Shown here one piece after another: positions 1,098 to 17,353 of a stretch of DNA of 20,520 nt (its first letter is position 1; each line of letters starts with the position of its first letter). Both the position numbers and the translations under genes were made by a program. The stretch is from Okeania sp. (GTDB taxonomy: Bacteria > Cyanobacteriota > Cyanobacteriia > Cyanobacteriales > Microcoleaceae). The stretch covers positions 1-20,520 of the forward strand of contig NZ_JAYKGW010000046.1 in assembly GCF_035285525.1 (NCBI RefSeq), read 5' to 3'. The notes under the pieces were generated by a model that saw nothing but the letters and a program-made list of their open reading frames with translations, ran no database searches and had not been told where the DNA came from.

Positions 1098-1508
1098 GAT
1101 TTTACTAATTCTCCCACAATTTTTGCCACACTTTCCGAAGGAGATAGTTATTTACAATTAGATAATCAAGAATATCCCTTTAATAGTGGGTTAAACTTAG
1201 TCGCTCACCCGAAAGGAAAACCAGTTCAAAGATTAGCATCTATGTCTGGAGGAGAAAAATTTTTAACAGCTTTAAGCTTTATTTTTGCCCTCCAACGTTA
1301 TCGCCCATCTCCTTTTTATGCTTTTGATGAAGTAGATATGTTTTTAGATGGAGCGAATGTAGAGCGATTAGCTAAAATGATAAAACAACAAGCACAACTA
1401 GCTCAATTTATTGTAGTTACTCTGGGTCGGCCTATGATGGAAGCATCCGAACGTACTATTGGTGTTACTCAAGCAAGAGGCGCTCATACTCAAGTTTTAA
1501 GAATCTAA
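1098..1508 (+). pseudogene. smc: Chromosome segregation ATPase SMC, C-terminal head fragment only (5'-truncated; copy A)
   Basis: The frame of ORF 1242-1508 extends upstream. It reads ..[85 protein letters not shown]...[33 protein letters not shown]. The ABC signature (SGGEK), Walker B (FYAFDEVD) and D-loop are all present. A full SMC is about 1200 aa; here the upstream sequence is the divergent Rpn fragment. Confidence 0.85.
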
Positions 1509-1544
1509 GATGTAGGATAAAAAAATAGAAACTAAAAAGCCAAA

Positions 1545-1617
1545 AGAAACCCGGTTTCTGAGTTAGAAGCTGGGTTTCTGAGTTATCAATCAAGAAACCG
1601 GGTTTCTGAGTTATCAG
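1545..1617. repeat. Three copies of a small palindromic element (A)GAAACCSGGTTTCTGAGTTATC
   Basis: Copies are AGAAACCCGGTTTCTGAGTTA at 1545-1565, a partial copy at 1566-1588, and AAGAAACCGGGTTTCTGAGTTATCAG at 1591-1617. Each core is self-complementary. The same element recurs at 4110-4178. Confidence 0.85.
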
Positions 1618-1673
1618 CAAGAGGTATACCCGCGCGAGCAAGATGCTTGCACTAAATATCATCAAAAAATAAA

Positions 1674-1703
1674 TTGATTTAGAGTTTTACAGTTCCTTAT
1701 GAT
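1674..1703 (+). promoter_or_regulatory. Candidate sigma70-type promoter for the sugar-nucleotide operon (TTGATT-N18-TATGAT)
   Basis: Hexamers at 1674-1679 and 1698-1703 lie about 70 nt upstream of the 1775 start. This is a sequence match only, in AT-rich DNA. Confidence 0.25.
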
Positions 1704-1774
1704 ACAATGGAAAATTATCCATTATCAAAAGGAGTATTAAGAATGCTTATTTCAGAAGAAAAACAGGAACAAAA

Positions 1775-2551
1775 ATGAAAGTAGTTATTCTAGCCGGTGG
1801 TATGGGAACCCGCTTAAGAGAAGAAACCGAATACCGTCCTAAACCATTAGTGGAAGTGGGAGGGCATCCGATTATTTGGCACATAATGAAGCTCTATGCT
1901 CATTATGGTTTTTGGGATTTTATTATTTGCTTGGGTTATAAAGGCAATTTAATTAAGGAGTATTTTCTTAATTACGAGGCCATGAATAATGACTTTACCA
2001 TTAATTTAGGTCGTTCCCAGGAAATTACTTACCATAACCTCCATCAAGAGCAGGACTTTCGCGTGACTCTGGTCAATACTGGTTTGGAAACTATGACTGG
2101 GGGGCGAGTTGCTAAAGTTAAACAATATATTAATGAAGATTTATTTATGGTGACTTATGGTGATGGTCTGGCAGATATTAATATTAAAGATTTGGTAGAA
2201 TTTCATAAAAGTCATGGAAAAATGGCTACTGTCACTACGGTACAACCGCTTTCTCGTTACGGAGTTTTAGATATTGACAAGGAAGCTAGGGTATTGAAGT
2301 TTGGGGAAAAGATTAAAGACGATAAAATAGTGAGCGCTGGTTTTTTTGTGTTTGACCGTCGAGTGTTTGATTATTTATCCGCGGAAAATTGTGTTTTAGA
2401 AAAAGACCCATTAGAAAAGTTGGCAGCAGAAGGTCAACTAATGAGTTATTATCATTCTGGTTTCTTTTATGCGATGGATACTTTTAAGGAATATCAGGAG
2501 TTGAATAAGATGTGGAAGTTGGGTCAAGCACCTTGGAGAATTTGGGAATAA
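1775..2551 (+). CDS. rfbF: Glucose-1-phosphate cytidylyltransferase
   Basis: The N-terminus [57 protein letters not shown] and the 258-aa length are characteristic of RfbF/DdhA. The next gene starts 1 nt after the stop. Confidence 0.9.
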
Positions 2552-16519: not shown

Positions 16520-16526
16520 ATTAGTT

Positions 16527-16559
16527 CTTAGTTGTATATTAATCTTAGTTGTATATTAA
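16527..16559. repeat. Tandem 16-nt direct repeat CTTAGTTGTATATTAA x2, just upstream of the 16519 start codon
   Basis: The copies lie at 16527-16542 and 16544-16559, separated by 1 nt. On the minus strand this sits 8-40 nt 5' of the ATG. Confidence 0.8.
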
Positions 16560-16787
16560 GTAGGATAATAGCTTTAATAAGTATGCAGTATAAATTAAGA
16601 GTTTCACAAAAATTACTTATTTAGTGGAGTTATCTTTAATATACCAAATCCGATTATTAAAACCTACTTTCTCCAAATCATTCTTAACCTTTTGCCTCCT
16701 CTTTCCTATGTCCTGCCTTAAACTTCTGAAAAACATCCTATAGAAGCTATTTGGTATCTTTGTAAAAGTGCGAGTTTTTGGTATCGG

Positions 16788-16818
16788 AGTCAGGAGTCAG
16801 GAGTCAGAAGTCAGGAGT
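16788..16818. repeat. Heptamer array (AGTCAGG)x4
   Basis: Read directly. It is the same unit as at the window start. Confidence 0.85.
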
Positions 16819-17181
16819 GGGAGAAATAAAATAGGGAAAAAAGTAGAAAAATACCTTGATATACCCACACGAACTACACGAACCACAGGAACCACCCTCC
16901 CCATCTATTAAAAAAAATAGATACCAACCAAATGGGTTCTATATATAAAGCTCTACTATTAATTCAGTTATTAGCAGTTAGCTGGCTGTTTTCTGCCATT
17001 AATTTAGTCGTCTGTGAAGATGACCTCAGCTATGAGCCAAGTATTTTAATCTTTGGCGGTCTTTAATTCAGTTATCAGTTATGGGAAGTTAATTGCCAGT
17101 TTCCAGCAAAACATTAACAAGACTTACGAAGAACCACTTTATTAAGACTTAGGCAAACTTGTAGATAAACCTTATTTGTAA

Positions 17182-17353
17182 GGGGCCAATGTAGAGCGAT
17201 TACCTAAAATGATTAAACAATAGGCACTGGCAAGCTTAGTTTATGTTTATTGTAGTTAGTCTGGGTCGGCCAATAATAGAATAGTCCGGAGGTAGCATCA
17301 ATGTTACCCAAGCTAGAGGCGCTCATACCCAAGTTTTACGGATTAAAATATAA
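17182..17353 (+). pseudogene. smc: Decayed duplicate of the smc 3' end (copy B)
   Basis: It aligns by eye to 1358-1508. The reading is [39 protein letters not shown], against copy [42 protein letters not shown]. In-frame TAG codons fall at 17221 and 17282. There is also a ~9-nt insertion and a frameshift. Confidence 0.8.

Follow-up and report, generated by a model that had tools for sequence, protein, structure and literature searches.

A glycosylation gene block between two copies of the smc 3' end in Okeania, and signs that the smc/PRC-barrel junction is a recurrent entry point of accessory genes in cyanobacteria

In Escherichia coli, e14 and phage 21 occupy the icd gene in such a way that the working gene extends into the prophage, which supplies the gene end (PMC13626634). 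A C-terminal pseudogene, icdC, is found at the far end of e14; most differences between the two copies are synonymous, and they recombine with each other on excision (PMC13626634). In this paper we analyse a stretch of 20,520 nucleotides (nt) from Okeania sp. (contig NZ_JAYKGW010000046.1 of assembly GCF_035285525.1, positions 1 to 20,520 of the forward strand; hereafter the window), in which a 15.7 kb block of cytidine diphosphate (CDP)-sugar and glycosyltransferase genes lies between two copies of the 3' end of the smc gene. We think it likely that this block is accessory DNA that was inserted at the smc end, before the PRC-barrel gene, in one Okeania lineage. The e14/icd/icdC system is the closest known case to this smc island.

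As e14 does at icd, the insert occupies the 3' end of a protein-coding housekeeping gene and has a homologous C-terminal fragment pseudogene at its far end. Of the features of the e14/icd type we find bracketing repeats, a site that is empty in relatives and what is most likely a displaced native end, while an intact target gene is absent from this contig and present in relatives. An element-encoded recombinase was not found. The e14 element is a prophage with its own site-specific recombination, whereas no recombinase or phage gene was detected in the block or in the related islands tested. The target differs as well, being smc, and the copy expected to be the working end is itself truncated.

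Three other types of system resemble the locus in part. In islands at tRNA and tmRNA genes, variable cargo lies between direct repeats of the 3' part of a conserved gene, and tandem arrays with partial tRNA copies occur, for example in the tycheposons of Prochlorococcus. The likeness is that repeated insertion at one site stacks cargo and a partial copy, as in the Trichormus locus L035 with its three copies of the smc end. Unlike these islands, the window contains no tRNA and no integrase, and the repeats are protein-coding and 115-410 nt long instead of tens of nucleotides. Integrase-free hotspots of accessory or defence genes between core genes, which turn over by homologous recombination in the flanks, share with our locus the conserved flanks (smc and PRC), a site that is often empty, varied cargo and mosaic ends of a flanking gene. 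However, a duplicated and displaced gene end with each insertion is not usual in the descriptions known to us, whereas a partial smc copy accompanies every insert examined here. Finally, Campbell-type integration, the single crossover of a non-replicating circle that carries the 3' fragment of a gene (as a laboratory suicide vector does), yields a full gene, the cargo and a fragment of the length of the arm, and is reversible. Its predicted product is the smc architecture that we observe, although Campbell crossovers would be spread along the arm and the three mosaic cases described below break near its left edge.

Two copies of the smc 3' end and the ancestral locus

The original prediction, made without database searches, held that repeats of the smc 3' end on the same strand bracket a block of about 15.7 kb. 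MAFFT alignment, a repeat search and blastn all confirm this. The left-hand copy (copy A) and the right-hand copy (copy B) share 84% mean column identity in the MAFFT alignment and ungapped segments of 81% over 98 nt and 83% over 53 nt in the repeat search. When copy A was compared with the rest of the window by blastn, the sole hit was 17182-17352 (77% over 172 nt with 8 gap positions, E 6.9e-31). The prediction had also placed only sugar and glycosyltransferase genes between the copies. Our domain scans, which used Pfam and NCBIfam on window open reading frames of at least 80 amino acids and covered the spacers in every reading frame, found nine such genes there and nothing else.

Copy A had been described as intact-looking and as starting at 1098 with about 135 codons, which is partly right. 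It has an open frame with an SMC_N match, there are no stops within the conserved region, and its amino acid identity to cyanobacterial SMC C-termini is 83-91%. The similarity to smc, however, starts near 1113, giving about 131 codons, and residues 1-5 of the frame that begins at 1098 are unmatched in orthologues. Copy A is also decaying. An alignment of 80 orthologues has 113 columns of at least 95% conservation; copy A mismatches at 8 of them, the orthologues at 0-5 (median 0). Outside the 5' boundary, the changes G17S, S55F, S108T, R110G and G135R fall at columns that are invariant in the 80 orthologues, with S55F in the MSGGEKS signature motif, and a change of AAA to TAA brings the stop two codons early. 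The copy is cut at about -396 (counted in nucleotides from the smc stop codon), and the start codon of an Rpn-like pseudogene on the minus strand is only about 36 nt away. The proximal copy thus does not complete a functional smc here, being truncated at its 5' side, abutting the pseudogene and carrying five substitutions at invariant sites.

Copy B had been taken for a dead copy of the last 55 or so codons, at roughly 80% identity. The identity (77-82%), the TAG codons at 17221 and at 17282 (the latter in a shifted frame) and the frameshift all stand. Two details need correction: the copy more likely starts at about 17159 (GTAGATA) than at 17182, and the insertion that shifts the frame, near 17228-17245, is of 7 nt and not about 9. 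There is a further 1-nt deletion near the end. Relative to orthologues, copy A shows 6-11 changes at first and second codon positions and copy B 13-18. The differences between the two copies are distributed over codon positions 1, 2 and 3 as 7/7/17 (binomial p 0.011), and at third positions they diverge by 17/52, as much as the PRC gene of this genome does from that of other species (26-35%). We read this as the pattern seen in relatives, blurred by decay.

The ancestral arrangement was derived from a scan with copy A of one genome per species, which recovered 80 smc 3' ends together with flanks of 10 kb. Downstream of smc, 73 of 81 loci have the PRC-barrel gene, so the expected synteny of smc and PRC without the cluster is borne out. 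Seven loci are empty sites (L002, L004, L012, L040, L055, L005 and L037, representing four Okeania, two Trichodesmium and one Microcoleaceae genome): in all of them an intact smc of 1220-1227 codons stands beside PRC, with neither a glycosylation block nor a remnant of another smc end. No decayed second smc end was seen in the smc-PRC spacers, of 0.2-1.9 kb, of other Okeania and Trichodesmium. In the window, copy B continues through a native-type stop into a native spacer, collinear with the region from smc to PRC in Trichodesmium L005, and the spacer at 17354-17711 has 75% nucleotide identity to both ends of the 360-nt Trichodesmium spacer. Since copy B is collinear with the Trichodesmium smc stop and spacer, it lies at the exact ancestral position of the smc end. 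The same collinearity speaks against a multi-copy dispersed repeat, as does the observation that 17182-17353 matches smc 3' ends only. The PRC-barrel protein of the window is most similar to that of Okeania SIO3I5 (83% amino acid identity), followed by Trichodesmium (75-80%) and Nostocales (about 50%). The original prediction had assigned the DNA to Nostocales, which is wrong; it belongs to Okeania, in the Microcoleaceae.

The spacer between smc and PRC has some properties of its own. In three Okeania (L004, L012 and L040) it holds an IS605/TnpB-type insertion of about 1.8 kb, with the smc end not duplicated, and the spacer is therefore open to hits by ordinary insertion sequences (IS) too. 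The gap measures about 58 nt and is almost invariant in most loci of the Nostocales. The sequence from the smc stop to the PRC start in most Nostocales-type loci, among L003-L081, is GTTTTTGTTAATAATAGTGTATAGATAAACCGGATTCGAGATCAGGACTCGGTATAGA followed by ATG, and its conservation far exceeds that of synonymous sites in the genes on either side. From this conservation, GTTTTTGTTAATAATAGTGTATAGATAAACCGGATTCGAGATCAGGACTCGGTATAGA may be a regulatory or 5' untranslated element of the PRC-barrel gene.

The footprint in other cyanobacteria and the direction of the event

Partial smc ends recur in at least nine other cyanobacterial genomes or contigs. In L025, L026, L035, L046, L057, L066, L068 and L070 a second or third partial end lies downstream of a full smc, and adjoins PRC where PRC is within the locus. 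Wherever smc and PRC lie 3-7 kb apart, namely in Anabaena azotica SJ-1, Richelia sinica, Trichormus NMC-1, Anabaena lutea, Cuspidothrix and one metagenome-assembled genome (MAG) of the Nostocales, PRC is adjoined by a second partial smc end. In a Coleofasciculaceae MAG and in Cronbergia (L070) the second partial end likewise lies downstream of a full smc, with PRC detected in neither locus. The proximal copy completes a full-length smc in L025, L026, L035, L046, L057, L068 and L070. All repeats stop at the smc stop codon. They start 127-239 nt upstream of it in Nostocales and Coleofasciculaceae and about 195 nt upstream in copy B, and elsewhere at about -312 and -411 nt (JGI contigs) and -396 nt (copy A). 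The left edge falls between -156 and -239 in 8 of the 12 partial copies measured, and most left edges lie at the same codons, in three separate lineages.

The cargo varies by genome, has toxin-antitoxin pairs and nucleases among it, and includes the candidate defence systems HEC-01 and HEC-02, TumE/TumA, NERD, Uma2, HNH, ParE, an ISAs1 transposase and an acyltransferase. Conserved core flanks with cargo that differs among genomes at one site are a feature of accessory-gene hotspots. Judged from these loci, the smc/PRC-barrel junction looks like a recurrent entry point of accessory genes in several cyanobacterial lineages, and the events in Okeania, in Coleofasciculaceae and in the JGI contigs L083/L084 are probably separate. 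We found no description of smc as an island target in cyanobacteria in the literature searched.

The JGI metagenome contig L083 (its arrangement is also found in L084) has partial smc ends at 2317-2628 (104 codons) and 10079-10489 (137 codons). These bracket an SbcC/SbcD-like pair and two unknown genes, with no full smc and no PRC nearby, and the longer copy begins at nearly the same smc position as copy A of the window. The gene beside the partial copy in L083 was considered as a homologue of the Rpn-like gene and rejected, as it is not homologous.

The direction of the event can be addressed through the relatives. Partial and full copies differ at codon positions 1/2/3 by 4/2/28 in L046, 0/0/15 in L035a, 2/1/16 in L035b and 0/1/10 in L070 (binomial p from 2e-2 down to 6e-9). 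Because the differences are concentrated at third positions, we conclude that the copies diverged as working genes in different lineages and were joined later; a duplication in place followed by neutral decay would give no third-position excess and is disfavoured. This bears on the first alternative, in which no outside DNA arrived and an internal rearrangement, a segmental or tandem duplication including the smc 3' end and followed by deletions, put a resident glycosylation cluster between the copies. There are reasons to consider it. In composition the block is close to its flanks, and it has no mobility gene. Okeania, Dapis and Microcoleaceae supply all of its nearest homologues, and in Okeania SIO3I5 a related TPR gene lies about 6 kb ahead of smc, on its upstream side. 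Yet copies A and B differ at third positions to the extent seen between species, with an excess of their own (7/7/17), the site is empty in seven relatives, the relatives add an overwhelming third-position excess and mosaic smc ends, and a homologous cluster exists elsewhere, in the contig L089. We therefore regard an internal rearrangement as improbable.

The cluster in L089, a marine metagenome contig, is the closest one to the block. Its proteins share 90% (rfbF), 81% (epimerase), 84% (C-methyltransferase) and 69% (TPR-GT61) identity with those of the window. The similarity begins at 1754, just ahead of rfbF, and upstream of it L089 has a serine hydrolase and an IS630 transposase instead of smc. 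The closest full-length homologue of the TPR-GT4 protein (P0122, 61%) is likewise found in a non-smc context, beside a GT2-GT4-methyltransferase gene. A cluster fixed at this position as vertically inherited core genome, which would have spoken against insertion, is thus not what we find, and on these comparisons we take the glycosylation block to be movable.

A second alternative accepts insertion and reverses its direction, so that the insert consisted of cargo and copy B, placed after the stop of a native copy A, and copy B was borne by the element, for example as a homology arm. The structure alone fits both directions. In L046 the partial copy is closest to the Nostoc/Scytonema type (91%) and the full copy to its relative Cuspidothrix (92%), and modules of cargo plus partial copy are common to L035a and L057 and to L035b and L046. 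Against this stand the unbroken passage of copy B through a native-type stop into the native spacer, and two further lines of evidence from relatives. The first are the tails in the Nostocaceae. The native smc end in this family reads ...ACATCTGCTTGA and is followed by the conserved spacer, whereas the full copies in island-bearing Nostocaceae end in the non-native GACCAT/TGA and then run into cargo. In Trichormus L035 the middle copy has the island-type tail and older cargo, and the copy next to PRC has the native tail and spacer. The tails kept in this array indicate that each partial copy is a former gene end, displaced by a later insertion that brought its own end.

The second line is mosaicism of the full-length genes. 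Between Cronbergia L070 and Cuspidothrix L068, 44 of 204 sites differ upstream of -204 and 15 of 204 downstream (p 6e-5). The same pattern is seen for L026 and L025 against Cylindrospermum L042 (p 0.004 and 0.02), and control pairs show no such effect (p 0.5 and 0.87). Since these breakpoints lie near the left edge of the repeat, the last 200 nt or so of the full-length genes are the imported part. In the relatives, then, the logic of a replacement end and a displaced end that had been put forward for the window is borne out by the Trichormus tails and the mosaic genes, and we give the reverse direction little credence.

Finally, the 20.5 kb contig is a short draft contig whose left end lies in repeat-rich DNA and whose left junction lacks independent support, but a chimera in which misjoined reads create the bracketing is highly improbable, as the right junction is 100% identical in a separate Logan assembly, copies A and B are about 20% diverged and so could be neither collapsed nor mis-bridged, and the same architecture exists in complete chromosomes such as that of Anabaena azotica SJ-1.

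A possible course of insertion and its catalyst

Returning to insertion with a replacement end, we suggest the following course of events. The incoming DNA, most simply a circle, would have carried its own smc 3' end ahead of the cargo. A crossover with the chromosome inside the last 190 nt or so of smc, at the Walker-B/D-loop codons, would have made the incoming end (copy A) the new end of smc. The original end (copy B) would have been moved 15.7 kb downstream, still joined to the native spacer and PRC, and its decay would have begun. A later second event, tied to an Rpn-family mobile unit, would have split copy A from the body of smc, so that copy A is now decaying in turn. On this scheme a third and functional smc end should lie to the left of the contig. 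A full gene, cargo and a 3' fragment of arm length are together the product expected of a single crossover with a circle carrying an smc 3' arm. As read from the sequence, copy B is most likely the displaced original end, and copy A most likely came in with the block. The milder, intermediate decay of copy A fits a later second displacement, in line with the serial accretion that the original prediction had offered as one of two options. Because no recombinase was found anywhere, we can only infer that the block is an integrating element. The direction of the event, the circular intermediate and the catalyst are inferred as well.

Several observations weigh against this scheme or narrow it. 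The cut of copy A (about -396) differs from the boundary of copy B (about -190), and the second event was therefore no simple repeat of the first. Over the roughly 156 aligned nucleotides, nearest-neighbour identity does not separate A from B in closeness to other Okeania. The window is the whole contig, which places the body of smc and any third smc end outside our view, and there is no independent support for the left junction, from copy A to the block. No tyrosine or serine recombinase, transposase or tRNA was found in the block or its spacers with Pfam, NCBIfam and ARAGORN, and no tyrosine or serine recombinase among the tested open reading frames of seven bounded islands in relatives. The left boundaries of the partial copies, from -127 to -411, are looser than expected of a single att core. 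The composition, proposed earlier as a check, differs only slightly between the block (GC 0.378, GC at third codon positions, GC3, 0.23-0.37) and the flanks (GC 0.344, GC3 0.19-0.28) and does not mark the block as foreign; the small offset fits a donor inside the same family. Moreover, the GACCAT/TGAA junction and repeat-rich spacer shared by the Anabaena, Cuspidothrix and Cronbergia group may go back to one old inherited event, followed by turnover of cargo. There are hence fewer independent origins than genomes.

The right junction, from the start of TPR-GT4 through the spacer and copy B to PRC, is the one found in the separately assembled Logan contig (L001). On the left, an exact-DNA scan of metagenomes gave no match to the junction of the Rpn-like gene with copy A. 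When the left end of the window was compared with the DNA after the smc stop in Okeania, only a heptamer repeat matched (best score 25, against a shuffle maximum of 28), and we give this match no weight.

The gene on the left had been described as a divergent Rpn-like nuclease gene that cuts copy A. It does lie beside copy A, and its homologues carry Rpn names. It is, however, a broken pseudogene, its middle interrupted by heptamer short tandem repeats at about 695-800, and profiles are silent: neither the window fragments nor the intact homologue in Cronbergia L070 gave a Pfam or NCBIfam match at E up to 0.01, and there was no PADLOC or PDB sequence match. Positions 375-1076 of the window share 68% nucleotide identity with the intact L070 gene of 313 amino acids. 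The L070 protein has at least 2180 homologues. Those about 60% identical to it are named Rpn family, RpnC/YadD or YhgA-like in NCBI, UniRef and JGI, and the NCBI name for many is 'Rpn family recombination-promoting nuclease/putative transposase'.

In L070 the Rpn-like gene sits in a discrete unit of about 1.35 kb (4636-5983) with imperfect terminal direct repeats of 52-70 nt, located between the full smc and a 239-nt partial copy. At a non-smc locus of Sphaerospermopsis NIES-73 (L169, about 9839-11037) there is a further such unit, N-terminally truncated and 90% identical to that of L070. From these two occurrences, the unit may be an independent small mobile element. We considered the Rpn-like gene as the cause of the smc duplication and rejected this, given its own unit with terminal repeats that is also found away from smc; for the same reason we regard it as a secondary insertion.

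What joined the block to smc can be narrowed down in part. The block has no transposon or IS signature, with no transposase domain, no bracketing inverted repeats and a duplication of about 190 nt. There is no tRNA or tmRNA at its boundary (no ARAGORN genes and no Rfam matches in the window). That no integrase is visible, as had been remarked from the sequence, agrees with our scans, which detected no recombinase domain in the open reading frames or spacer frames of the window and no integrase remnants in the spacers. As catalyst we incline, tentatively, to a site-specific recombinase that works in trans or has been lost. It is favoured by the left edges, which lie mostly at the same codons in three lineages, and by the mosaic breakpoints at the left edge. 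Host homologous recombination through an arm of about 200 nt, in the manner of Campbell integration, is conceivable, if rather doubtful; in its favour are the lack of a recombinase in any island, the spread of left edges from -127 to -411 and the identity of the arms (77-94%). Some other catalyst we hold to be unlikely.

A wider hypothesis, which we offer as a quite unlikely one, is that filamentous cyanobacteria host a family of integrase-free islands that use a replacement smc 3' end of about 200 nt as attachment arm. Such islands would insert at the Walker-B/D-loop codons, stack into arrays and move defence, toxin-antitoxin or surface-glycan cargo between lineages. Their catalyst might be something other than a classical recombinase, such as an insertion triggered by a nuclease and guided by the homology arm. 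In 5 of the 12 partial copies measured, a divergent nuclease-type gene lies beside the displaced copy, namely Uma2 in L035a and L057, an Rpn-like gene in L070 and the window, and an HSDR_N-like gene in L068. This position is the usual place of an int gene.

Layout of the window and meaning of the locus

The features of the window are collected in Table 1. From the gene families alone, the cargo probably alters surface polysaccharide.

Table 1. Annotated features of the 20,520-nt Okeania window
Feature	Position	Strand	Evidence or remark
Rpn/YhgA-like pseudogene	50-1076	-	ORFs (open reading frames) 801-1076 (N-terminal) and 50-643 (C-terminal), in different frames
smc 3' end, copy A	1113-1508	+	SMC_N match 1.6e-29
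Left spacer of insert, with three GAAACCCGGTTTC-type palindromic units	1509-1774		No domain match in any reading frame
Sugar-nucleotide operon, five genes	1775-6503	+	
Glucose-1-phosphate cytidylyltransferase (rfbF)	1775-2551	+	Pfam; NCBIfam TIGR02623, 339 bits against a cutoff of 300
CDP-glucose 4,6-dehydratase-like	2553-3554	+	Pfam; TIGR02622, 229 bits, below its cutoff
RmlC-type 3,5-epimerase	3551-4108	+	Pfam; TIGR01221, 189 bits against a cutoff of 156
NAD-dependent epimerase/reductase	4204-5118	+	Pfam
C-methyltransferase	5187-6503	+	Pfam
TPR-GT61 glycosyltransferase	6694-9942	-	Pfam
GT61 glycosyltransferase	10284-11243	-	Pfam
GT2-GT4-methyltransferase fusion	11337-14219	-	Pfam
TPR-GT4 glycosyltransferase	14240-16519	-	Pfam
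Right spacer of insert, non-coding, with heptamer repeats	16520-17158		No domain match in any reading frame
smc 3' end, copy B, decayed	17159-17353	+	
Native smc-to-PRC intergenic spacer	17354-17711	+	
PRC-barrel domain gene, conserved right-hand neighbour of smc	17712-18773	+	Pfam PRC 5.9e-18
Response regulator with GAF domain, native flank gene	18973-20109	-	Syntenic in Okeania

The window is rich in short repeats. Small palindromic units based on GAAACCCGGTTTC form tandem and inverted arrays at 1544-1618 and 4109-4204, in two spacers of the block, and may be terminators or miniature repeats. The intergenic stretch 6578-6605 is a perfect palindrome of 28 nt, GTAGGGACGTTGCATGCAACGTCCCTAC. Derivatives of this palindrome, three in tandem and 24 nt each, are found at 16012-16094 within TPR-GT4; they are in frame and give the peptide HPNPVGTL three times over. 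Heptamer short tandem repeats (CAGTTAT, CCATTAT, AGTCAGG, AATTATT) occur at 695-800, 16788-16809, 17067-17082 and 18775-18990. Other Okeania have similar arrays downstream of the smc stop, and in Nostocaceae such arrays separate the partial smc copies from the native spacer.

Two further observations concern single genes or spacers. On the plus strand of the spacer at 9943-10283 there is an open stretch with NNPELTLKKVFEFLGKEYNQKVIEFY, which has no significant Pfam match and which seems to resemble the C-terminal region of sulfotransferases. In the response-regulator/GAF gene, CCCCCCTTACAAAGGGGGGTTGGGGGGGATTCTAAG, a G/C-rich unit of 33-36 nt, forms about five in-frame repeats at 19256-19456 that encode LESPPTPL-type peptide repeats. 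The orthologues in the two closest Okeania (L002 and L012) align only outside residues 217-289, and from this alignment the coding repeat looks like a lineage-specific expansion.

Taken on its own, the window is a fairly ordinary island footprint; the notable part is its recurrence across cyanobacteria without a visible recombinase. The insertion model accounts for the presence of two dead smc tails on one Okeania contig. It makes the glycan cluster recently acquired, strain-variable DNA, of a cargo type that changes the properties of the cell surface. Each insertion would leave a datable fossil of the previous gene end, and arrays such as that in Trichormus would record the order of acquisition. 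For the biology of these cyanobacteria this leaves two possibilities: host recombination can carry islands from one species to another with no more than some 200 nt of a highly conserved gene, or the work is done by an enzyme not yet recognised.

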